Both the position numbers and the translations under genes were made by a program. From positions 1 through 64,000 of the IMG/VR virus record IMGVR_UViG_3300036892_000014: a DNA stretch of 64,000 bases; one strand, 5' to 3'. This DNA comes from a virus. The notes beneath the pieces were generated by a model. That model was not told the DNA's origin and did not search any database. It worked only from the letters and a program-made list of their open reading frames with translations. This document shows, piece by piece, positions 6,698 through 15,542 of the stretch (positions are counted from its first letter, which is position 1; each line of letters begins with the position of its first letter).

Positions 6698-6917
6698 GGA
6701 AAAGAAATGTACGCAATTATCTGTCTCGTTGTTACGTTGGCTGTCGGGGCTCTGTTTATCGCGGCCTTCAGAAAATCTTGGAATTAAGGGAAACGAAATG
6801 ATGAAAGCAGTCCTGCATTATTTGGATAAAGAGATTTTCAGGCTCTCAGCGCAGTTGCGCTATTTGAAGAACCTGCAAAAGTTTCTTTCATAAAGTTCTT
6901 GACAAACAGGAGATATC

Positions 6918-7145
6918 ATGGTAGAATTCGTATTAGCAATCGGGGCTGTCATCGCAACAGCCGTCGCGATCTCGAAGCACTTCTCCGCGGCGCAGCTTAA
7001 GGTTGACCTAGCCTCAGCGAAGGCAGCCGTGGTGAGCGAAGTGAACAAGGTCAAGGCTACAGTCATCGTCGAGTTGGCCAAGGTCGCTCCGAGCGCAAGC
7101 GCGGACGTTCAGGCACTCGTGGTTAAGATCAAAGCAGTGCTTTGA
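6918..7145 (+). CDS. small membrane-anchored Ala/Val-rich protein
   Basis: AGGAG RBS, N-terminal hydrophobic helix. Confidence 0.65.
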   Translation: MVEFVLAIGAVIATAVAISKHFSAAQLKVDLASAKAAVVSEVNKVKATVIVELAKVAPSASADVQALVVKIKAVL

Positions 7146-7188
7146 TGCCTCGCTCTCAAGAGCAGACAGAATTCTGTAAAGTTTCAAT

Positions 7189-7265
7189 GGTGAGCCAGGC
7201 GAAACAGGTGACGCGCTAGACTGTGAATCTGGTTACAGTGGGTTCGAGACCCACGGCCCACCCCA
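7189..7265 (+). tRNA. tRNA-His(GTG)
   Basis: Cloverleaf, G-1, encoded CCA. Confidence 0.9.
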
Positions 7266-7336
7266 ATTTTAAATCCACGACTACGGTCAGGTGCAAAGTT
7301 TGAAGTTGAAGTTGCCGAAAGAAAAAGTTTAGATAA

Positions 7337-7414
7337 CGCGCCTGTCCAGGCATTGGGGTCGCCCCAGAATTCGGACCATCTGGTCCCGAACGCTCGCGAG
7401 AGGATCGGGGCACA
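7337..7414 (+). ncRNA. putative cloverleaf-like ncRNA
   Basis: Outer stem plus hairpins TGGGG/CCCCA and TTCGG/CCGAA; ATTTT trailer like the tRNAs. Confidence 0.35.
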
Positions 7415-7432
7415 TTTTAGAAAGCAGGGTTT

Positions 7433-7708
7433 ATGGCCGGATACGAGATGGATGTTCCCGAGTATCCGCACAGAATGACGTACCGCGTCGTCGGAGGTTT
7501 CCACTTGCCTTACGACGTGTCAAAGACTCCCGAAGAAAAGAAGTCCAGCCCGCAGCGGCTTGAGCAGTTGATCTTGGCAGGCGAGCAAGCGAGTATAACG
7601 TTTCGCGTTCTTCCCGTGGACATACAGCAACTGTACGTGAAACAGTTCGCGATGTTACTGGCCGAGATCGAGAAGTTGAGATTGAAGTTGCCTAAAGAAA
7701 AAGTTTAG
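7433..7708 (+). CDS. hypothetical protein in tRNA array
   Basis: 91-aa ORF; shares YDVSKTP with 5941-6483. Confidence 0.55.
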   Translation: MAGYEMDVPEYPHRMTYRVVGGFHLPYDVSKTPEEKKSSPQRLEQLILAGEQASITFRVLPVDIQQLYVKQFAMLLAEIEKLRLKLPKEKV

Positions 7709-7782
7709 CCGCTCTAGCTCAGTGGTAGAGCGCCGGTCTGAAAAGCCGGGCGTCTGTGGTTCGATTCCCCAGTGCGGCACCA
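7708..7782 (+). tRNA. tRNA-Phe(GAA)
   Basis: Cloverleaf, CCA. Confidence 0.9.
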
Positions 7783-7788
7783 AGTTTT

Positions 7789-7855
7789 GGCTGAGTATGC
7801 TTCGCCGTGCAAACGGAATGAAGACCAACCAGCGGTCCTGTTACCAGGAGCCGCA
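7789..7855 (+). ncRNA. putative four-way-junction ncRNA
   Basis: GGCT/AGCC closing stem with three hairpins; AAGTTT trailer. Confidence 0.35.
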
Positions 7856-7861
7856 AAGTTT

Positions 7862-7972
7862 ATGAAAACTAGATGGTGTACGATTTGTCACTGGTGGTTA
7901 ACATTGCCGTGGTCTCACAACCACTGCTCTAAGTGTGGCTCGCGTCTAGTACAAGTAGCAAATCGGTTTTAG
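7862..7972 (+). CDS. 36-aa zinc-ribbon peptide
   Basis: CTIC...CSKC. Confidence 0.45.
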   Translation: MKTRWCTICHWWLTLPWSHNHCSKCGSRLVQVANRF

Positions 7973-8055
7973 CCCTGCTGGTGGAATGGCAGACGCGCCG
8001 CACTCAAAACGCGGTTCCTTCGGGAGTCTCAGTTCGAATCTGAGGCGGGGCACCA
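7972..8055 (+). tRNA. tRNA-Leu(CAA)
   Basis: Cloverleaf, long variable arm, CCA. Confidence 0.9.
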
Positions 8056-8060
8056 AAGAT

Positions 8061-8142
8061 TGGAGTGACTTCGAAAACGGTCAATAAGTTTCGAAGCTTG
8101 TTGAACCGCAGCCTCCGCCTAGAAAGCGCGGGCAGCACTCCA
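8061..8142 (+). ncRNA. putative structured ncRNA ending in CCA
   Basis: TGGAGTG/CACTCCA outer stem, CTTCGAAA/TTTCGAAG hairpin, possible loop pseudoknot CGGTCAA/TTGAACCG. Confidence 0.45.
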
Positions 8143-8159
8143 TAGTTTTAGTCCAAGTT

Positions 8160-8366
8160 TGACCGCGTGGAAGGATACCAAGGTTCTCTCGTGAACGATG
8201 AGGCCCAGAAACGCGAAACGTCGGCGGACGAGACTCCGCAGGTAGTCGTCAAAAAGTTCGTAGGCATGATAGCGCGGCTCCGCCGAATAAATCGGTAAAG
8301 ACGGGTACGCCGACCGAGATCACGCTACCGATGTTTGATTGACAAGGGCCGCTTAATCGCGGTCGG
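8160..8366 (+). ncRNA. putative ~205-nt multibranch ncRNA
   Basis: GACCGCG/CGCGGTC outer stem; nested AAACGTCGG/CCGATGTTT, GGTAG/CTACC, GCGGA/TCCGC. Confidence 0.5.
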
Positions 8367-8371
8367 AGATT

Positions 8372-8461
8372 ACCCCGCAGCGATGGTTCGCGGCAGAGTT
8401 CTATAAACTCTTCGGGCCAGATAAGCCTTGCTATGTCGTCCGATTCGACAGTGGGGTACCA
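8372..8461 (+). tRNA. atypical tRNA-Ile(TAT) with long variable arm
   Basis: ACCCCGC/GTGGGGT acceptor, AGAGT-TCTATAA-ACTCT anticodon arm, CCA. Confidence 0.7.
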
Positions 8462-8466
8462 ATTTT

Positions 8467-8552
8467 GCGCTGCTGATGGAATGGCAGACATGCGGGACTT
8501 AAACCCCCGTGGGAGAAATCCCATGAGCGTTCGACTCGCTCGCGGCGCACCA
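8467..8552 (+). tRNA. tRNA-Leu(TAA)
   Basis: Cloverleaf, CCA. Confidence 0.9.
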
Positions 8553-8576
8553 AGTTCTAGAAGTCATGGAGTCTTT

Positions 8577-8816
8577 ATGAGCAAGTCATATGGTGATAAC
8601 CGCGACGACCAAGCATCAGTGCCGTCGGCTGGCGGGGAAATTCGTGCCCGTGGTAAGAGCAGCGCCGAGCAGGATAAGGGTCGCGACGATCAGTCGGCTG
8701 TGGCTGTTGGCGGTGGTGTGAACCGCATGCGTGGTAAGTTGACAGCCGAACAGGACAACGGTCGCGATGACCAGTTTTCAAAGCCGTCAAGCGGCGGAAC
8801 GATCCGTAAGAAGTAA
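8577..8816 (+). CDS. 79-aa hydrophilic protein with three 27-aa RDDQ repeats
   Basis: GGAG RBS; repeats visible in the protein. Confidence 0.7.
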   Translation: MSKSYGDNRDDQASVPSAGGEIRARGKSSAEQDKGRDDQSAVAVGGGVNRMRGKLTAEQDNGRDDQFSKPSSGGTIRKK

Positions 8817-8911
8817 TGCTCACGGGAATAATTATCGGGCTGGCGATTGTGGTGGCTATAGAGTTGATCTCGGACCACCCGCTGTTCGTCCGTCGTAGAA
8901 AATAAGTTTAT

Positions 8912-8987
8912 GCGTTTGTAGCTCAATAGGCAGAGCACTCCCCTCTTAAGGGATAGGTTGCTGGATCATTGCCAGCCGGACGCACCA
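8912..8987 (+). tRNA. tRNA-Lys(CTT)
   Basis: Cloverleaf, CCA. Confidence 0.9.
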
Positions 8988-9004
8988 TTTTGTACGTACA
9001 TTAG

Positions 9005-9048
9005 TTGGGGAGTGCCCTAACACTCCCCGACATCCTTTAGGGAGGATG
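9005..9048 (+). promoter_or_regulatory. kissing-loop RBS-masking leader, copy A
   Basis: GGGGAGTG-CCCTAA-CACTCCCC then CATCCT-TTAGGG-AGGATG; loops complementary. Confidence 0.8.
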
Positions 9049-9050
9049 CC

Positions 9051-9557
9051 ATGATTTGTAAACTTTGTAGCGAGGTCTTTTCGTCGAAAGACAAGCGAAG
9101 ACTATTTTGTTCTAGGTCTTGTTCAGCAACGTACTCGAACAAGTTTGGTGATAGACCAGTTTCACAGAACAGACGACCGTGTCCAGATTGTGGGCAAGAG
9201 ATTAGAAATAAGAATACCAAGACTTGCATAGATTGCCGTGCTGGCAGGCAGCACAGAGAAACAGGATTTCTCAAAAAGAAAGACGTGAATCGTGAGAGGA
9301 TTAGCGCTCACGCTAGAAGGGTTATCAAAGAACACCTCTCGTCTTGTAAAGTTTGCGGGTACGACTTTGCTGTAGAAGCAGCGCACGTCAAACCCGTTAA
9401 AGAGTTTTCAGGTGACGCGACGATAGAAGAGATTAACAGAATAGAAAATCTGTTGCCTCTATGTCCTAATCACCACTTAGAGTTCGACCGAGGTAAGTTG
9501 ACTCTAGAAACAATCTTATCGGTTGCGGATGCGAGCGGCAGCAATGCGGCCTTTTAA
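9051..9557 (+). CDS. HNH homing endonuclease (Zn fingers + HNH)
   Basis: CxxC repeats, EAAHVKP...ENLLPLCPNHH. Confidence 0.9.
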   Translation: MICKLCSEVFSSKDKRRLFCSRSCSATYSNKFGDRPVSQNRRPCPDCGQEIRNKNTKTCIDCRAGRQHRETGFLKKKDVNRERISAHARRVIKEHLSSCKVCGYDFAVEAAHVKPVKEFSGDATIEEINRIENLLPLCPNHHLEFDRGKLTLETILSVADASGSNAAF

Positions 9558-9594
9558 GCCGAGTGTCAGGGTTCGAGCCCCTGGCGACCGACCA
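9520..9594 (+). tRNA. tRNA-Lys(TTT)
   Basis: Cloverleaf, CCA; overlaps HNH 3' end. Confidence 0.85.
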
Positions 9595-9600
9595 ATTTTG

Positions 9601-9692
9601 TGGGAATATAGTTCGGGATAATATCCGAATAGTCCTGGCAACGCATGCGAAACCAGGAAAGGGCGTCGTGAGAATCGGCGAGTTCCCAGCCA
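9601..9692 (+). ncRNA. tRNA-like RNA without a standard anticodon loop
   Basis: TGGGAAT/GTTCCCA acceptor + G + CCA, T-arm CGTCG-TGAGAAT-CGGCG, aberrant D and anticodon arms. Confidence 0.6.
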
Positions 9693-9700
9693 TTTTACGT

Positions 9701-9790
9701 GGAAGTGCGGCGAAGACGGCGGGTCGTATCTGTCTGTAAAACAGATTGCCCTTGTGGCACTAAGAGGTTCAAATCCTCTCGCTTCCACCA
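9701..9790 (+). tRNA. tRNA-Tyr(GTA)
   Basis: Cloverleaf, long variable arm, CCA. Confidence 0.9.
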
Positions 9791-9798
9791 TTTTCTAT

Positions 9799-9873
9799 AG
9801 TTCACTGGCGCAACAGCAGCGCAGTCTCTTGATAGGGGAACGGTTCGTGGTGCAAATCCACGGTGGACTACCA
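9799..9873 (+). tRNA. tRNA-Ile(GAT)
   Basis: Cloverleaf, CCA. Confidence 0.8.
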
Positions 9874-9877
9874 ACTT

Positions 9878-9980
9878 AGTGTTGAGTTCGACGTGTGCAA
9901 GCGTCGGATGTAGTACAGCACAATCAGTTCGTTCTCGGACGTAAACCGAATGGTGGATCAATAATTCCTGATGACACTCC
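9878..9980 (+). ncRNA. putative pseudoknotted ncRNA or leader upstream of HNH
   Basis: AGTGTTG/TGACACT outer stem, TTCGACG/CGTCGGA hairpin, loop TGTGC pairs with GCACA. Confidence 0.4.
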
Positions 9981-9997
9981 TGCCCAGGGAGAATCAC

Positions 9998-10489
9998 ATG
10001 ATTATTGTTTCCGATAGTTGGGACGGACAAATAAGAAAGCTGTCCTCTCATAGTTGTTTGCAATGCAGTGAAGAATTTTTCGCGCCGCTTAAAGCGCGAG
10101 CTAAGTATTGTAGTAGAGACTGCATGGGTTTTGCTACGCGGACTCGAATCAAGATTTCGTGTTCTAGGTGTCGTAAAGAGTTTGAACGACAACAGAACAA
10201 AGTTAAAGAGTTAAACTATTGTAGTAGGGAGTGCAAAGAGTTAGACCAGCAGATTGGCGGTCCTCTAGCGCTACCACACTACAAAGACGGCAGACACGAT
10301 TACAGAAATCGAGCGTTTCGCTTACAAGGAAAGAAGTGTAAGCAATGTAGCTTCGATGAAGACGAGCGAATGCTCGATGTTCATCACATAGATAGTAATC
10401 GAGATAACGGACGACCTGAGAACTTAGTTGTTCTTTGCGTTTGGTGTCACGCCGCCACCACAAGAAAAGTTTCTGGGGCTATCGCCTAA
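9998..10489 (+). CDS. HNH homing endonuclease
   Basis: CxxC/YCSRxC repeats, LDVHHIDSNRDN...ENLVVLCVWCH. Confidence 0.9.
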   Translation: MIIVSDSWDGQIRKLSSHSCLQCSEEFFAPLKARAKYCSRDCMGFATRTRIKISCSRCRKEFERQQNKVKELNYCSRECKELDQQIGGPLALPHYKDGRHDYRNRAFRLQGKKCKQCSFDEDERMLDVHHIDSNRDNGRPENLVVLCVWCHAATTRKVSGAIA

Positions 10490-10551
10490 TTGGGATGGCA
10501 CTTCCCTTGCAAGGAAGAACAATGTCGGATCGTCCCCGACTAGCTCCACCA
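10475..10551 (+). tRNA. tRNA-Ala(TGC)
   Basis: Cloverleaf, G3:U70, CCA; overlaps HNH stop. Confidence 0.9.
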
Positions 10552-10560
10552 AGTTTCAAT

Positions 10561-10635
10561 TCGCGGCTGGCAGATCGGCTCATGCATCGGTCCTACACAC
10601 CGACCAGCGAGGTTCAACTCCTCGGCGGCGAACCA
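10561..10635 (+). tRNA. tRNA-Val(TAC)
   Basis: Cloverleaf, C33, CCA. Confidence 0.8.
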
Positions 10636-10639
10636 TTTT

Positions 10640-10714
10640 GGCTCCTTGGTCCAACGAACAAGACTCAGCGCTACGAACGCTGCAATTTCGGTTTGAATCC
10701 GAAGGGGGCTTCCA
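10640..10714 (+). tRNA. tRNA-Arg(ACG)
   Basis: Cloverleaf, CCA. Confidence 0.85.
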
Positions 10715-10719
10715 ATCTT

Positions 10720-10795
10720 TGGGGATTCGTCTAAACGATAAGACATCTGGCCGTTAACCAGACCGATGAAGGTTTGAATCCTTTGTCCCCAGCCA
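10720..10795 (+). tRNA. tRNA-Asn(GTT)
   Basis: Cloverleaf, C33, CCA. Confidence 0.85.
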
Positions 10796-10803
10796 TTTTA
10801 CGA

Positions 10804-10879
10804 GCACGCATCATATAGCGGTCCAATATTCCGAGCTTGTACCTCGGTCACTTCCGTTCGAATCGGAATGTGTGCTCCA
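10804..10879 (+). tRNA. tRNA-Thr(TGT)
   Basis: Cloverleaf, CCA. Confidence 0.85.
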
Positions 10880-10884
10880 GTTTT

Positions 10885-10958
10885 GCTTTGCTCGTCTAGT
10901 GGTAAGACGACGGTTTCGTAAACCGCAAACGACTGTTCGATTCAGTCGCGAAGCTCCA
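10885..10958 (+). tRNA. tRNA-Thr(CGT)
   Basis: Cloverleaf, CCA. Confidence 0.9.
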
Positions 10959-10964
10959 GTTTAT

Positions 10965-11038
10965 GCTTTGTTCGTACAAAGGAAGTACACGTCTTTGGTA
11001 AAGACGAAACGATGGGTCAGTACCATCACGAAGCTCCA
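10965..11038 (+). tRNA. tRNA-Thr(GGT)
   Basis: Cloverleaf, CCA. Confidence 0.85.
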
Positions 11039-11043
11039 GTTTA

Positions 11044-11110
11044 CGCCCCGAGTCACGCAACACGTAGCCTACAAAACAGGTAGGAGCTAGTGGCCTTTTG
11101 AAAGGGGCGA
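11044..11110 (+). ncRNA. putative structured ncRNA
   Basis: CGCCCC/GGGGCG outer stem, GTCAC/GTGGC, CCTAC/GTAGG. Confidence 0.4.
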
Positions 11111-11119
11111 AAAATTTAC

Positions 11120-11198
11120 GGTCTCGTGGCCCAGCCTGGCCCACGGCGCTCCCCTGTCACGGGAGATTTCACGAGTTCAAATCTCGTCGAGACCGCCA
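11120..11198 (+). tRNA. tRNA-Asp(GTC)
   Basis: Cloverleaf, CCA. Confidence 0.9.
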
Positions 11199-11204
11199 AT
11201 TTAT

Positions 11205-11278
11205 GGCCCTGTCTTCTAATGGCAGGATTCTTGCTTCTCAGGCAGGCGGCAGCGGGTCAGTACCGCTCAGGGCTACCA
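11205..11278 (+). tRNA. tRNA-Glu(CTC)
   Basis: Cloverleaf, CCA. Confidence 0.85.
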
Positions 11279-11283
11279 ATTTT

Positions 11284-11358
11284 CGCGCAGTACGTTATGG
11301 GTTAGACAGCGTGCCTTTCAAGCACGCAGACAGAGTTCGAGTCTCTGCTACGCGACCA
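11284..11358 (+). tRNA. tRNA-Glu(TTC)
   Basis: Cloverleaf, CCA. Confidence 0.85.
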
Positions 11359-11448
11359 ATTATCGATGTGTGCGACAACTTTAGCGAAGTAGTTCTCGGA
11401 CACATTGCACGATGCGGTGCAAGTAGCAATTCCGCGTCGGAGTTTAAT

Positions 11449-11533
11449 GCCCTGCTGATGGAATTGGCAGACATATCCGTCTTAGAAACGGATGCCTTCG
11501 GGCGTACAGGTTCGACTCCTGTGTGGGGTACCA
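11449..11533 (+). tRNA. tRNA-Leu(TAG)
   Basis: Cloverleaf, long variable arm, CCA. Confidence 0.9.
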
Positions 11534-11541
11534 ATTTCAAT

Positions 11542-11629
11542 TGTGGGTTCGACTAGTGGCCGATGTCGCCTGTCTCATAAGCAGGTCAGCGAAAGCGCAC
11601 CGTTGGTTCAAATCCAACACCCGCAACCA
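11542..11629 (+). tRNA. tRNA-Met or Ile2 (CAT) with long variable arm
   Basis: Cloverleaf, CCA; Met versus lysidine-Ile cannot be resolved by eye. Confidence 0.8.
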
Positions 11630-11644
11630 ATTTGATGCATCATA

Positions 11645-11689
11645 GGCCGGGGTGCCCTTAACACCCCGACCAACTCTTTAAGGGAGAGT
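11645..11689 (+). promoter_or_regulatory. kissing-loop RBS-masking leader, copy B
   Basis: CGGGGTG-CCCTTAA-CACCCCG then ACTCT-TTAAGGG-AGAGT. Confidence 0.8.
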
Positions 11690-11692
11690 GCT

Positions 11693-12187
11693 ATGTTTAA
11701 CAAGGCAGAAAACCATAAGCGTTACATGCGGGAAGTTTGGTATCCGGCTAACAAGCGAAAACACCAGACGATGGTTCACCGACGTAAGGTAGCCATACTA
11801 GAATTTGTTCGAGCCGCTAAAGCAATCGGCTGTTCGAGGTGTCCAGAGAAAGAGATATGCTGTCTGGACTTTCATCACGCTAAAGGTAAGAAGAGCGCCA
11901 GCCTATCAAGGGTTCATACGTTGGGCTGGTCGTGGGCTAGGATTAAGCGAGAGATCGCAAAGTGCATTATATTGTGTTCTAACTGTCACAGGAAAGAACA
12001 TGCTAGAGGCCGTGGGCTCGTTTCCCACCCCTGCTACCAATTTATGAATCATAAACGCCGTCGCCCAAAGAATCGCCGTGCTGGATGTCTCATGTGCAAA
12101 GCGCATAAGATGAACGGTGCAAAAGGTGAAATGCTCGCGACCAAGGTCAAGGGCATCAAGGGTAAGATACGGCTTGAAGAAGTTTAA
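11693..12187 (+). CDS. HNH endonuclease fused in frame, through a tRNA remnant, to a small basic ORF (12044-12187)
   Basis: CSRC...LDFHH...EIAKCIILCSNCHRKEH, then reads through a tRNA 3' half. Confidence 0.8.
   Translation: MFNKAENHKRYMREVWYPANKRKHQTMVHRRKVAILEFVRAAKAIGCSRCPEKEICCLDFHHAKGKKSASLSRVHTLGWSWARIKREIAKCIILCSNCHRKEHARGRGLVSHPCYQFMNHKRRRPKNRRAGCLMCKAHKMNGAKGEMLATKVKGIKGKIRLEEV
12003..12039 (+). pseudogene. 3' half of a tRNA (T-arm, acceptor strand, CCA)
   Basis: GTGGG-CTCGTTT-CCCAC CCCTGCT A CCA ATTT; 5' half absent. Confidence 0.7.
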
Positions 12188-12261
12188 GCGATGTTGGTAT
12201 AGTGGTAGAACGATTCCTTGCCAAGGAATAGGCACCGTTTCGATTACGGTACGTCGCTCCA
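12188..12261 (+). tRNA. tRNA-Gly(GCC)
   Basis: Cloverleaf, CCA. Confidence 0.85.
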
Positions 12262-12475
12262 TAGCCGCGAGTGGTGAAAGCCACGGACGGCTCCAAGTTT
12301 CGTTAACCCCGCAATTATGGCGGGACAACCAAATCGTAGGTAGGTTGAAAACCCTACCCCAATTTTACCATATGCCTTGCGGCATGATCGGCATACATAG
12401 TAGAAGCCGCAGTCTTCGCTGCCCGTCAGTTGTTCAAGACTTTAAACATGGGCGACGGGCGAATTTAGGTGATCT

Positions 12476-12721
12476 ATGTTCACAGCCGTAGTGATGACAC
12501 TCGGACTTGTTGTAGACTTGGTCGCTCTGTATTTCTTAGTCGGCATTTGGCGCGATGACAGATTGATGAGAATCGCCGCAGAAGACACATTGAAGGTGCA
12601 GCAAGAATATCTCGGCCTCAGACGAAAGTGGTATGAGAGTCGCACAAAGAAGAAGACTGATGCTCAAGAACCGAAAGCCGCAACTGGAATTCCTGATGGC
12701 GGTAGTTCGAACCCTGTGTAA
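12476..12721 (+). CDS. small membrane protein
   Basis: AGGTG RBS, N-terminal TM helix. Confidence 0.6.
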   Translation: MFTAVVMTLGLVVDLVALYFLVGIWRDDRLMRIAAEDTLKVQQEYLGLRRKWYESRTKKKTDAQEPKAATGIPDGGSSNPV

Positions 12722-12785
12722 CGTGGCAGGCGTAATCATCAGCATCATTTACGTTCTTTGGCAAATGCATTTGTTACCTTTTTAA

Positions 12786-12859
12786 GCGGGCTTGACCGAA
12801 CGGCCAGGTACCTGCCTTCCAAGCAGAGGAAGCGATTTCGACTATCGCAGTCCGCTCCA
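12786..12859 (+). tRNA. tRNA-Gly(TCC)
   Basis: Cloverleaf, CCA. Confidence 0.85.
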
Positions 12860-12862
12860 GTA

Positions 12863-12943
12863 TTCGGGTAGAGGGGTTCGAATCCCACAGGCGTGAACGG
12901 GTAAGGCCGCACGTTGCTATAGTGTAATGGCAGCACACCCGAA
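12863..12943 (+). ncRNA. circularly permuted tRNA-like RNA (YrlA / Y RNA-like)
   Basis: T-loop TTCGAAT precedes D-arm AGTGTAATGGCAGCAC; ends pair TTCGGGT/ACCCGAA. Confidence 0.65.
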
Positions 12944-12954
12944 ATTAGTTCCGC

Positions 12955-13029
12955 GAGTCGCAAGTGTTATGGCTGCATCTCCGTCTCCAAAACGGTAGGG
13001 TGATAGTTCGAATCTATCGCGTCTCGCCA
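12955..13029 (+). tRNA. tRNA-Trp(CCA)
   Basis: Cloverleaf, CCA. Confidence 0.85.
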
Positions 13030-13036
13030 ATTTTAT

Positions 13037-13111
13037 GGGTCTCTCGTTCAATGGAGAGGACGCCACACTTCTAAGGTGGCTATGTCGGTTCGATTCCGAC
13101 GGGGCCTTCCA
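13037..13111 (+). tRNA. tRNA-Arg(TCT)
   Basis: Cloverleaf, CCA. Confidence 0.85.
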
Positions 13112-13117
13112 GTTTCT

Positions 13118-13192
13118 GAATGTATAGCTCAATGGAAAGAGCTAGGGTTTCCTAAACCCTCGATCCAGGTTCGACTCCTGGTACGTTCTCCA
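13118..13192 (+). tRNA. tRNA-Arg(CCT)
   Basis: Cloverleaf, CCA. Confidence 0.9.
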
Positions 13193-13206
13193 GTTCAAGG
13201 GGCAGT

Positions 13207-13605
13207 ATGAAACTCAGTAGGTTCCCATATTGGCAACTGCTAGCGATACCTGCTCTAGCGTGGTGCCTAGGACTCGGATTAAACCAGGCGGTATTGATTG
13301 CCAATCACGGGAAGTTCCCCGTGATGGTGAATGAAGTCCAGTATGAGATACATTGCACCGCGGATGAAGACTCAGATGACGCGCCGTCATCATCGTGTGT
13401 AAAAGGCGGTCAGTTCTTTGATAGAGAACATAGTGTTATGGGGCCGAACTCGCGTCTGAAACCATTAGCCGACATCCTTCCGATAGTCGGCGGCGTATAC
13501 AGTATCGGCGACACTCTACTCCTCGTGGGTGGAGAGTCATTTGCAATTTTGAAATTTATGTGGCTTGCTCTGGTAATCAGAAAGGCCTCACAGAACTTAG
13601 GGTAG
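13207..13605 (+). CDS. DUF5317-like membrane protein
   Basis: LNQAVLIANHGKFPV...HSVM...SRLKPLADIL...YSIGD motifs. Confidence 0.7.
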   Translation: MKLSRFPYWQLLAIPALAWCLGLGLNQAVLIANHGKFPVMVNEVQYEIHCTADEDSDDAPSSSCVKGGQFFDREHSVMGPNSRLKPLADILPIVGGVYSIGDTLLLVGGESFAILKFMWLALVIRKASQNLG

Positions 13606-13912
13606 GCTGGACGACCGCAGGAAACTGAGGAAGTTCGGGACTCTTCTAGACAGAAGACTGTGGAAGATGCAGGACGCGTAAGCGTACGGGTAAGGCCAGA
13701 TGCGGTGCAGATGCTATGGGAAACCAAATGCGGACATCGCCATTCAAGTCTGGGCACTCCCTCTTCGGAGCAATCTCAAATAGGACCTGAGCGCGTCTAG
13801 CGCGATGACGGTCGGGTTGAGAGCAAAGACGGATGGTCGTCAACTTATAACGTGACAATTCGAAAGATTTGTCAACTTATAACGTGACAGAATCCCGGCT
13901 ATAGGCCGACCC
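13600..13912 (+). ncRNA. rnpB: RNase P RNA (bacterial A-type-like, reduced)
   Basis: GAGGAAGTTCGGGA and ACAGAATCCCGGCTA form P4; P1, P2, P3, P6 (CTAGA/TCTAG), P8, P9 and P15-17 can be paired. Confidence 0.9.
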
Positions 13913-13923
13913 AAAGATATTAC

Positions 13924-14009
13924 GGATCAGTGGCGAAATGGTAGACGCACGAGTTTGCTAAACTCGCAACTGAAAGGTTGTGCCTGTTCAAGTCGGGCCT
14001 GATCCGCCA
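13924..14009 (+). tRNA. tRNA-Ser(GCT)
   Basis: Cloverleaf, long variable arm, CCA. Confidence 0.9.
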
Positions 14010-14017
14010 AATTTCAA

Positions 14018-14102
14018 GGAAGATTCCGCTCATGGTGGGCAATCCGGTTTGAACCCGGAGGCTGCTGAAAGGCAGGGGTTTCGATTACTCACTCTTCCTC
14101 CA
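14018..14102 (+). tRNA. tRNA-Ser(TGA)
   Basis: Cloverleaf, long variable arm, CCA. Confidence 0.8.
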
Positions 14103-14108
14103 TTTTAA

Positions 14109-14182
14109 CCACGAGTCGGCAAACGGCAAGCTGAATGTCTGCAAAACATTTACCGCTGGTTCGACTCCAGCCTCGTGGTCCA
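14109..14182 (+). tRNA. tRNA-Cys(GCA)
   Basis: Cloverleaf, U73, CCA. Confidence 0.9.
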
Positions 14183-14191
14183 AGTTTCTAC

Positions 14192-14266
14192 TGGGCGATG
14201 GTGTAACGGTAACATCACGGACTTTGAATCCGTTGGATGAACGTTCGAATCGTTCTTGCCCAGCCA
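14192..14266 (+). tRNA. tRNA-Gln(TTG)
   Basis: Cloverleaf, CCA. Confidence 0.9.
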
Positions 14267-14274
14267 ATTTCAAT

Positions 14275-14349
14275 TGCTCGGTCATCTAATTAGTAGGATG
14301 CGATCCTCTGAAGATTGTCATGCTGGTGCGAGTCCAGCCCAAGCAACCA
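14275..14349 (+). tRNA. tRNA-Gln(CTG)
   Basis: Cloverleaf, CCA. Confidence 0.85.
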
Positions 14350-14350
14350 A

Positions 14351-14426
14351 CACCCGATAGCTCAAAGCGATTAGAGCACCTGGCTTGACCAGAGAGATAC
14401 CGCCTAGCGAACGGTTTGGGTGACCA
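14351..14426 (+). ncRNA. tRNA-like RNA with 5-nt anticodon loop
   Basis: CACCCGA/TTGGGTG acceptor + ACCA, D-arm, CTGG-CTTGA-CCAG, non-canonical T-loop. Confidence 0.6.
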
Positions 14427-14433
14427 ATTTAAT

Positions 14434-14522
14434 CGGGTTATAGCTCCGTAATCTGGCAGCGGTCTGGTTTTGGAAACCAGTGACTAACGTCCTTCGAGGT
14501 CCGAATCCTCGTAGCCCGACCA
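14434..14522 (+). tRNA. tRNA-Pro(TGG) with extended variable arm
   Basis: Cloverleaf, CCA. Confidence 0.85.
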
Positions 14523-14542
14523 TTTTGTATGTACGTACATTT

Positions 14543-14590
14543 GACGGGACGAGCCTGTAACTCGTCCCGTCTACTCTTTACAGGAGAGTA
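14543..14590 (+). promoter_or_regulatory. kissing-loop RBS-masking leader, copy C
   Basis: GACGGGACGAG-CCTGTAA-CTCGTCCCGTC then TACTCT-TTACAGG-AGAGTA. Confidence 0.85.
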
Positions 14591-14592
14591 TC

Positions 14593-14973
14593 ATGATTAG
14601 TTCAGAAGCGCAGAAAGCGTGGAAGAGAAAAGACTATCTAGATAAGAAAGCATATAAGAAAGCATATTATTTAGCGCGAGACACCGAGCGATACTACAGG
14701 TTTCGAGAGATTTTGATTGAGGCGAAGAGAAAGCCTTGCATAGATTGCGGACACGAGTTTCCGACCTGTGCAATGGATTTGCATCATAGAAACCAGAGTG
14801 AGAAGATTCGAAACGTCTCTACCTTAAAAGACTTCTCTTCCGAGAAGAAATTGAGAGAAGAGATTGCCAAGTGTGATGTGATATGTGCTTGCTGTCATCG
14901 AATCCGCTCAGATAAAGACAAAGTTTACTTCGGGAATTCTGATAGTGGTAATCTACGCCCTTCGGATGGGTGA
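14593..14973 (+). CDS. HNH endonuclease
   Basis: CIDCG...MDLHH...EIAKCDVICACCHRIR; stop codon lies inside tRNA-Pro(CGG). Confidence 0.85.
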   Translation: MISSEAQKAWKRKDYLDKKAYKKAYYLARDTERYYRFREILIEAKRKPCIDCGHEFPTCAMDLHHRNQSEKIRNVSTLKDFSSEKKLREEIAKCDVICACCHRIRSDKDKVYFGNSDSGNLRPSDG

Positions 14974-15004
14974 GACAGAGTTTCGATTACTCTATTCCCG
15001 ACCA
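14931..15004 (+). tRNA. tRNA-Pro(CGG)
   Basis: Cloverleaf, CCA. Confidence 0.85.
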
Positions 15005-15013
15005 TATTAAAGT

Positions 15014-15050
15014 AAAGCCGCCTTCGCTTTAACAAGCAGGCGGCTTTTGT
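15014..15050 (+). terminator. rho-independent terminator ending the tRNA array
   Basis: AAAGCCGCCT...AGGCGGCTTTT hairpin with T-tract. Confidence 0.75.
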
Positions 15051-15068
15051 ATTTCTGGAGGTGTCGTC

Positions 15069-15542
15069 ATGTGGATGGGACAAGGGCAACTAAACTTCGA
15101 TGACGGCACTGTGCAGGTTACCGCAGCGGGTGGACCCGCAACCATTATTCAGACTGTGGCTATCGACCCCACAGCGCCAACAACCGGACAGGTTCTAACC
15201 GCGATCAGCGCCAGCGCAGCAAGTTGGCAAGCTGCTGGTGGTTCTTCATTGAACTACAAGACCATACGTTCTGCCCCGACGAGCTTTACTCAGGCAGGAA
15301 TTACCGGTCCTATCGTGATGTCTTTCTCTACACCTTTTGCGGACAACAACTACACCATACAGGTCACTGTATTAGGTGATGAAGTTGCTCCAGGCACACC
15401 CACAATCACTCAGTTCCCTTCAGTAGGAATTAGTTACATCGCGCTTCAGACAACCCCTGGCGCTGGTGTGAATGTGTGGATTGCAAATAACGATTCCATT
15501 GCGCACACGGGCATCATACACGTCACCGCAATTCACGACTAA
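15069..15542 (+). CDS. putative virion protein
   Basis: GGAGG RBS, Thr/Gly/Ala-rich beta-type sequence. Confidence 0.7.
   Translation: MWMGQGQLNFDDGTVQVTAAGGPATIIQTVAIDPTAPTTGQVLTAISASAASWQAAGGSSLNYKTIRSAPTSFTQAGITGPIVMSFSTPFADNNYTIQVTVLGDEVAPGTPTITQFPSVGISYIALQTTPGAGVNVWIANNDSIAHTGIIHVTAIHD

Follow-up and report, generated by a model that had tools for sequence, protein, structure and literature searches.

The window analysed here comprises the first 64 kb (64,000 nucleotides, nt) of an 83.9-kb virus record, IMGVR_UViG_3300036892_000014 of IMG/VR, and contains a long array of transfer RNA (tRNA) genes. Nine stretches between these genes (7337-7414, 7789-7855, 8061-8142, 9878-9980, 11044-11110, 11361-11441, 12263-12295, 12305-12361 and 12658-12747) had been taken in a preliminary description for a single class of structured small RNAs. 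This picture is partly confirmed: the nine form a mixed set of one coding stretch, two gene leaders, one conserved RNA and five lineage-specific modules. The operon setting and the shared punctuation held, whereas one member is coding, one is the leader of an HNH endonuclease gene and one is a hairpin over a ribosome-binding site (RBS). The reading favoured here, which has roughly an even chance of being correct, is that the modules are cut out together with the tRNAs by cleavages of the ribonuclease E (RNase E) and ribonuclease P (RNase P) type, as features of the sequence suggest.

Folding was scored as the z values of the prediction tool against 200 dinucleotide shuffles. Stable helices had been claimed for each stretch, and this holds for six of the nine (z from -2.4 to -3.8): 7786-7855 (-2.85), 8059-8146 (-3.84), 11044-11112 (-2.75), 11361-11443 (-3.40), 12262-12298 (-3.58) and 12303-12363, where the value is borderline (-2.42). 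It does not hold for 7337-7414 (-0.27), 9878-9980 (-0.56 for 9875-9980) and 12658-12747 (-1.51), which are indistinguishable from chance. A rerun with the exact boundaries of the preliminary description and with 96 coding windows of the same genome agrees with the first folding. The coding controls have a mean z of -0.13, with 3% below -2.4 and none below -2.75; the rerun gave -2.87 for 7789-7855, -3.14 for 8061-8142, -2.58 for 11044-11110 and -4.11 for 11361-11441. For 8061-8142 and 11361-11441 the plus strand folds better than the minus strand, which reached -2.05 and -2.21 respectively. A closing stem running from end to end, expected in most of the stretches, is found in only four of the nine (8061-8142, 11044-11110, 12263-12295 and the coding 12658-12747), while 7789-7855, 11361-11441 and 12305-12361 consist of tandem hairpins instead. 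The complementarities of 5-8 nt described earlier are present in the sequence, but they are short, and the pair CGGTCAA/TTGAACCG corresponds to the two strands of a predicted hairpin in 8061-8142.

Two anchors were used to collect related arrays. The DUF5317-like open reading frame (ORF) at 13207-13605 led to 12 IMG/VR loci and 21 metagenome loci, and the 81-codon ORF at 12476-12721 led to four more. Large arrays are present in L008, L014, L037, L038, L039, L040 and L045 (the last being the contig of L042), and the tRNA order of the window is kept in L037, L039 and L045. The public sequencing runs that hold the window itself are peat, permafrost and freshwater metagenomes. In a cluster look-up, near-identical variants of two proteins encoded in the array were found on JGI contigs of 1,763 and 6,760 nt, and an IMG/VR scan with a 47-residue peptide returned distant homologues only.

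Taken as a class, the gaps between tRNA genes in this phage group are structured. Among 54 gaps of 40-135 nt in eight arrays, the median z is -1.38, compared with 0.04 in 110 coding controls (Mann-Whitney P 2e-8), and closing stems occur in the minimum free energy (MFE) folds of 61% of the gaps and 38% of the coding controls (P 0.007). Several gap families common to the relatives have stems held by compensatory changes and end in (A)RTTT. When all non-tRNA gaps were compared with each other, the only parts of the window found to be conserved were the RNase P RNA, the 81-codon ORF with the region downstream of it, the HNH genes with their leaders, and 7332-7414.

Database searches did not assign the nine stretches to known RNA families. 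An Rfam scan over 6800-15400, at gathering thresholds and with E values up to 10, returned no family for any of them. An identity as tRNAs was rejected: there was no match to RF00005 at E up to 10 and no ARAGORN cloverleaf at 80% thresholds, a setting that yields 51 false calls in 68.7 kb of control sequence. Decayed tRNA genes were likewise rejected, as none of the nine stretches matched a tRNA when the gaps were compared by sensitive blastn with nine arrays and the whole genome; the same search did match 10961-11040, 11203-11278 and 12786-12860 to the Thr(ggt), Glu(ctc) and Gly(tcc) genes. No paralogues were found in the genome itself, and six gap queries against 50,697 GenBank phage records (blastn in "distant" mode) gave no match. 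A scan for intrinsic terminators (GC-rich stem, at least 5 T in 8) detected no site at any of the nine stretches, and a candidate common 5' motif at the module starts, ACGC(G/C)CC, is not enriched.

The stretch at 7334-7416 on the plus strand is, judging by its comparison with relatives, a conserved structured RNA of a small mobile family, referred to here as g1, whose three helices appear to be under selection. It is composed of a 4-base-pair (bp) helix P1 around hairpin P2, followed by hairpin P3, and it ends in ACATTTTAG. The P3 loop has the form GC(C/U)CG(C/U)GAG-GG, with the loop motif GCCCGCGAGG. Homologues were found at L040:1947-2030 (79% identity) and L042:828-915 (75% identity; the same element as L045:4135-4216), and a fourth member, L007:3588-3663, was matched by a three-sequence profile (E 1.5e-4). 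As family members the elements span L040:1949-2032, L042:831-912 (the L045 copy just named) and L007:3583-3663. The flanks are unrelated among the members, and each array has the element at a site of its own, between His and Phe, between His and Pro, between Gly(gcc) and Gly(tcc), or upstream of Asn. P1 is GUCC/GGAC in the window and GUCA/UGAC in the three relatives. P2 reads UUGGGG-UCG-CCCCAG in the window, L040 and L042, and CGUC-UAG-GACG in L007. P3 is CCCGA/UCGGG in the window and CCUAUCC/GGAUAGG, CUAGU/ACUAG and ACGGG/CCCGU in the relatives.

In the model-fitted alignment of g1, 92.7% of cells pair and 5 of the 14 pairs are changed on both sides. Only 1-2 of 500 shuffles equal the observed values, and slid partners pair at 59% or less; this covariation rests on four sequences, in an alignment that leans towards the model. 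The only conserved stretch is not thermodynamically special (z -0.27). Because the insertions and deletions among the members are not multiples of three, g1 is not coding. A small ORF begins 4-17 nt 3' of it in three of the four cases; since the L007 copy precedes further RNA-like elements rather than an ORF, g1 is not called a leader. No match to g1 was obtained in Rfam or in GenBank phages, and an exact 22-mer search found only L040 and L042. A looser gapped pattern gave chance matches, with no true member among the 232 loci listed, and is uninformative on absence. An alternative long-range helix, in which the 5' CCUGUC pairs with the 3' strand of P3, was rejected: it occurs in the MFE of two members and is not kept in all four.

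The five lineage-specific modules lie on the plus strand and differ in architecture. That at 8061-8142 is a three-way junction with a 7-bp closing stem (UGGAGUG/CACUCCA) and two arms, followed by TAGTTTTAG. Two modules stand alone between tRNA genes: 11044-11110, located between tRNA-Thr(ggt) and tRNA-Asp, has a 6-bp closing stem (CGCCCC/GGGGCG) and an inner hairpin, and 11361-11441, located between tRNA-Glu(ttc) and tRNA-Leu(tag), forms two tandem hairpins. The module at 12263-12295 resembles a minihelix: 5 bp, a 3x3 internal loop, another 5 bp and a GAAA loop, then CCA and AGTTTC. It begins 1 nt after the CCA of tRNA-Gly(gcc), and its stack has about 13 layers. The last module, 12305-12361, contains two small hairpins. 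The second of these (12340-12361) has 6 bp and the loop UUGAAAAC, an 8-nt U-U-G-A-A-A-A-C loop, and runs directly into CCA, without a discriminator, and then ATTTTA. A hairpin of like design, followed by GCCA and AGTTTC, is found directly 3' of tRNA-Ser(tga) at L037:8891-8927.

Homologues of these five modules were found neither in more than 40 related loci, nor in the genome itself, nor in GenBank phages. The slots that they occupy have other contents in the relatives. From Leu(caa) to Ile(tat) there are elements of 98-143 nt with different sequence; from Thr(ggt) to Asp the slot measures 71 or 112 nt and holds unrelated elements in L039 and L045; from Glu(ttc) to Leu(tag) there is nothing, 49 nt or 376 nt (L039 is empty and L045 has a 49-nt hairpin). 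The slot after Gly(gcc) is either empty in the relatives or filled by a copy of g1 or by a tRNA-like RNA that contains a large insert. The position where the window has 12263-12361 is taken in L037 (5873-5985) by a tRNA-like gene with normal D and T arms and about 55 nt inserted in the anticodon region. The preliminary description had proposed a search for homologues in related tRNA arrays and had named a lack of structural conservation as the outcome that would speak against it. That search yielded conservation with covariation for g1, whereas the five modules show none in the eight related arrays, among which there is no close relative.

An RNA of L039 and L045 was considered as a possible homologue of 8061-8142. 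It is located between tRNA-Leu(caa) and tRNA-Ile(tat) (L039:4806-4906, L045:204-306) and is cloverleaf-like, with a canonical T arm and two complementary loops, CGGUAA/UUACCG versus CGUCAA/UUGACG, in which two pairs changed in a compensatory manner (kissing-loop pairs). A covariance model built from this element, R2, gave no match to 8061-8142. Homology is consequently not established, despite the similar loop-to-strand complementarity in 8061-8142.

The remaining stretches belong to protein-coding genes or to their leaders. The stretch at 9878-9997 (plus strand) is the 5' leader of an HNH endonuclease gene and, as its alignment with homologous HNH leaders indicates, part of a mobile HNH cassette. 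The ORF has a Pfam HNH assignment and likely starts at ATG 9998, and the 3' half of the leader aligns upstream of homologous HNH genes in L037, L038 and L040. One of its hairpins is conserved (9935-9949), and a second lies over GGGAG at 9987-9991. The stretch at 7789-7855 (plus strand, z -2.85) forms two tandem hairpins, the second of which (7832-7854) pairs, in the predicted fold, the AGGAG at 7845-7849, 12 nt before ATG 7862. This ATG opens a 36-codon ORF (7862-7972, plus strand) with two CxxC pairs, zinc-ribbon-like, which has a weak tblastn match in L037 (E 2e-4) and whose stop codon overlaps the first base of tRNA-Leu(caa). It is plausible from the modelled fold that hairpin 7832-7854 is a translational leader of this ORF. 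No homologue of 7789-7855 was found in the related arrays. A DNA contig of run X3 comes from a relative in which the stretch is retained as far as 7838, with another inner hairpin, and joins tRNA-Leu(tag) directly thereafter, so 7789-7855 is not tied to the 36-codon ORF.

The stretch at 12658-12747 had been listed among the non-coding gaps, a label that does not apply to it. Protein-level conservation identifies it as coding: it is the overlap of two small plus-strand ORFs and not an RNA gene. These are the 81-codon ORF (12476-12721) and a 29-codon ORF for a hydrophobic membrane peptide (12696-12785). Both are conserved in at least seven related loci, with tblastn E values down to 3e-31 for the former and 1e-12 for the latter. 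The 29-codon ORF ends at the first base of tRNA-Gly(tcc) and is conserved in seven relatives.

A shared punctuation links the modules to the tRNAs. CCA is encoded in all 33 tRNA genes of the array, and RTTT starts no more than 5 nt from the CCA in 23 of them. RTTT is also found within positions -9 to -1 of the tRNA 5' end in 27 of the 33, against a background of 4-5%, put at 4.9% for the leaders (P ~1e-25 and 4e-30). It occurs at 11 of the 16 tRNAs preceded by an ORF or a gap rather than by another tRNA, and where an ORF precedes, the motif is built into its last codons. The A(A/G)TTT trailer noted earlier was recovered, as RTTT, after eight of the nine stretches, a count that is not an unbiased test because the stretch boundaries were picked by eye. 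In five of these eight cases (after 7411, 7854, 8142, 12292 and 12358) the motif is more than the leader of the next tRNA. The observation that some stretches end in CCA is also borne out, at 8140-8142, 12293-12295 and 12359-12361. The spacer has the form CCA, 0-2 purines, TTT. RNase E recognises the motif RN|WUU and cuts near tRNA 3' ends (PMC5222698); CCA, A, G|UUU or A|UUU fits this motif.

The layout of the region is consistent with a single transcription unit. Between 7190 and 15004, ARAGORN with default settings detects 28 tRNA genes, each of them on the plus strand. Relaxed thresholds, Rfam and homology add five that it misses, for a total of 33: tRNA-Ile(tat) at 8372-8465, tRNA-Thr(ggt) at 10965-11038, tRNA-Glu(ctc) at 11205-11278, tRNA-Gly(tcc) at 12786-12859 and tRNA-Ser(tga) at 14018-14102. 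Each of the five has an orthologue in related arrays, and two of them have an unusual GGGTCAGTACC T arm. Besides tRNAs, the array contains four HNH endonuclease ORFs, several small ORFs and an RNase P RNA-like gene. A promoter-like site at 6899-6927 on the plus strand (TTGACA, 17 nt, TAGAAT, with TG; 11 of 12 consensus matches) is the best-scoring one in 6700-15300 and likely drives the whole array, on sequence grounds. A terminator-like hairpin with a T-run follows the last tRNA (15024-15043, plus strand). In the motif scan, none of the nine stretches coincides with a predicted promoter or terminator. With one promoter-like site, one terminal hairpin and none at the stretches, the simplest reading is a single long transcript that needs cutting.

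The RNase P RNA-like gene inside the array (13599-13917, plus strand) matches RF00010 with 93.6 bits (E 4.5e-28), just below the gathering score of 100. Homologues are present in all eight related arrays, at differing array positions. It is possible that this RNA belongs to the enzyme that processes the modules. In the metatranscriptome X10, contigs identical to the window cover 7804-7973 and 11212-11528, the latter including two tRNA-Glu genes, 11361-11441 and tRNA-Leu. This contig is compatible with a tRNA precursor; DNA carry-over is possible, and contigs give neither ends nor strand.

On the favoured reading, the array from about 6900 to 15050 would form one operon of tRNAs, small ORFs, HNH genes, RNase P RNA and hairpin modules with U-rich spacers between them. 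As the motif fit suggests, an RNase E-type enzyme would cleave the precursor within the single-stranded RTTT spacers, and RNase P of the host, perhaps with the phage RNA, would cut on the 5' side of the acceptor-like closing stems. Hairpin 7832-7854 and the stretch 9878-9997 would act in cis as 5' leaders that fold over the RBS of embedded genes, and the five orphan modules would be lineage-specific elements filling tRNA-sized slots. The role of the modules would be mainly local: they may keep neighbouring tRNAs and small messenger RNAs (mRNAs) folding independently, cap the ends of small mRNAs and define the ends of their neighbours. For instance, cleavage at 12262/12263 would trim tRNA-Gly(gcc) to within one base of its CCA end. 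The earlier proposal of co-processing with the tRNAs agrees with the sequence as far as co-transcription and shared punctuation are concerned, and it is a prediction from the sequence.

Several points weigh against this reading. The presence of RNase E in the host is an assumption. Five modules are without homologue, and in the relatives their slots are empty or taken by unrelated elements, which leaves it unproven that selection acts on these very sequences. The closing stem of 11044-11110 has no NCCA tail, and in 12305-12361 the stem in front of the CCA has just 6 bp, a short substrate for RNase P. The contigs from the RNA library are long pieces that may be precursor or contaminating DNA; 7337-7414, 8061-8142 and 12263-12747 have no RNA cover in the assembled contigs, which is no evidence of absence. 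Finally, a role in processing and insulation is hard to distinguish from no role.

The absence of homologues for the five orphans can also be explained by array turnover. They would then be functionless scars, such as decayed tRNAs or leftovers of insertions and deletions caused by homing endonucleases. The variable slot contents among syntenic arrays, the four HNH genes within the array, the tRNA-like size of the modules (67-88 nt) and the clear remnants nearby (the tRNA 3' fragment 12003-12047 and the duplicated ORF end 7290-7336) all fit this explanation. Decay should erase stems, yet the modules reach z values of -2.4 to -3.8 and the gaps are structured as a class. Moreover, the orphans have no residual similarity to any tRNA of the nine arrays, and the gap families of the relatives show compensatory changes. 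Debris is considered unlikely, though it is one of the two main rivals. The other, a function in trans, is rather improbable; it is the reading of the preliminary description, which had named decoys and anti-defence RNAs as possibilities. In that case the excised modules, chiefly the CCA-ended hairpins and g1, would act as decoys or sponges, capturing RNase P itself or host factors by which tRNA ends or bodies are attacked or bound. The CCA-ended hairpins do lie flush against tRNAs, and the presence of g1 at differing positions in four phage lineages argues for a function of its own; the leuZ-3'ETS, which is cited in PMC5222698, provides a precedent for a functional spacer RNA from a tRNA operon. 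Against such a role, no Rfam antitoxin or defence-associated RNA was matched at E up to 10, there is no known target, the five modules are unconserved even among syntenic arrays, and no accumulation is evident in the assembled contigs of one metatranscriptome.

Two further mechanisms were considered. Attenuators or terminators that meter expression along the array are very unlikely. GC-rich hairpins followed by short T-runs do occur, for example at 12340-12366 and 7832-7861, but the terminator scan accepts none of them, their T-runs have a length of 3-4 and come after CCA or purines, and almost all tRNAs are preceded by that motif. Ribozymes that punctuate the transcript by self-cleavage are extremely improbable, although the preliminary description had also suggested ribozymes. 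The position between units would suit them, but no Rfam ribozyme family (hammerhead, twister, pistol, hatchet, HDV-like and others) was matched over 6800-15400 at E up to 10, none of the folds contains a known catalytic core, and the conserved spacer and the encoded CCA point to processing by protein or RNase P.

The module at 12263-12295 resembles tRNA-like processing signals, namely the mascRNA of MALAT1 and the t-elements of plant mitochondria, as well as synthetic acceptor-T-arm minihelices. Because it is CCA-ended and directly abuts the upstream RNA, cleavage by RNase P would set the 3' end of that RNA. Compared with an acceptor-T-arm minihelix (about 12 bp as 7+5, a T-loop, a discriminator and CCA), it shares the stack length and the CCA. 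However, a GAAA loop takes the place of the T-loop, a 3x3 internal loop interrupts what would be a continuous 12-bp helix in the minihelix, and the discriminator is ambiguous; 12305-12361 has only 6 bp and no T-loop.

Non-tRNA RNAs in phage tRNA regions are of a known kind, to which g1 and this particular set of modules add new members. The T4 RNAs RNAC and RNAD (species 1 and 2 RNAs) come from the tRNA region and have no known function (PMC3014915), and their expression has been confirmed by Northern blot (PMC9697503). Like them, the window stretches are small non-tRNA elements among phage tRNA genes, on the tRNA strand. Unlike them, the window modules are more numerous and smaller and are known here from sequence, and no sequence homology was found in the 50,697 GenBank phage records. 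GOLLD and ROOL are structured non-coding RNAs of unknown function near phage tRNA islands (PMC12286853). They are ornate and range from several hundred to more than 800 nt, whereas the window modules measure 33-88 nt and have no Rfam match to either. As described in PMC5222698, the leuZ-3'ETS is freed from a polycistronic tRNA precursor by RNase E at U-rich sites. The window spacers similarly fit RN|WUU, but the 3'ETS is an Hfq-bound sponge with known small RNA partners, and the window modules have no known partner or Hfq site. Structured 5' leaders that mask the RBS are described for the T4 genes e, soc, 49 and I-TevI (PMC3014915). The predicted folds of 7832-7854 and 9980-9991 likewise pair the Shine-Dalgarno-like purines of the next ORF, with the difference that the spacing from AGGAG to ATG 7862 is long (12 nt).

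Further observations were made in the window and in the related arrays. Inside a region read as a 164-aa HNH ORF lies a tRNA 3' fragment at 12003-12047, homologous to L039:8349-8393, which comprises a T arm, the acceptor strand and CCA and runs on into ATTTATG. A gene for a 47-codon basic CxxC peptide, with relatives in 68 IMG/VR loci, comes next at 12045-12188; the supposed ORF probably represents two genes that meet at a tRNA remnant. Just upstream of 7337, the segment 7290-7336 duplicates the last ~35 nt of a 91-codon ORF (at 7676-7708; the ORF ends in AAAAAGTTTAG), which looks like a scar left by segmental duplication or by insertion. A tRNA-shaped RNA whose anticodon arm is enlarged and non-decoding lies at 9601-9697, between tRNA-Lys(ttt) and tRNA-Tyr; the same architecture occurs at L039:5249-5348 and L040:4944-5044, that is, in three phages. 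The segment 12862-12950 (z -1.95) contains T-arm-like, small and D-arm-like hairpins in that order, closed by a terminal stem, an arrangement that resembles a permuted tRNA. At least five more conserved non-tRNA structured RNA families, bounded by (A)RTTT and several of them with covarying stems, are found in the related arrays, none of them in the window. They are represented by the pairs L038:5894-5978 and L040:4781-4865, L039:9297-9392 and L040:6336-6432, L008:7820-7881 and L038:8549-8610, L014:6329-6423 and L040:9349-9443, and L007:3700-3815 and L040:2183-2297.

A broader possibility, quite speculative and held to be improbable, is that the arrays of these peat and soil phages are RNA toolkits and not plain tRNA sets, encoding next to the tRNAs and an RNase P RNA a quickly changing stock of processed non-tRNA RNAs, in which g1, CCA-ended minihelices and tRNA-shaped RNAs with rebuilt anticodon arms act in trans. 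If this were true, they would for example serve as decoys against attack on tRNA ends by host nucleases or transferases, or regulate the phage RNase P, and their quick turnover would reflect an arms race and not drift. Annotations of phage tRNA clusters usually list the tRNAs and treat the rest as "intergenic" DNA. Here, in one lineage, the slots between tRNAs are significantly structured as a class, share the tRNA punctuation and hold at least one covarying RNA family absent from Rfam and GenBank phages. Although the want of a cultured host and of RNA-end data restricts its value, the array with its own RNase P RNA offers a compact natural system for the cutting of polycistronic tRNA and mRNA transcripts and for the function of the by-products, a question that dates back to RNAC and RNAD of T4.

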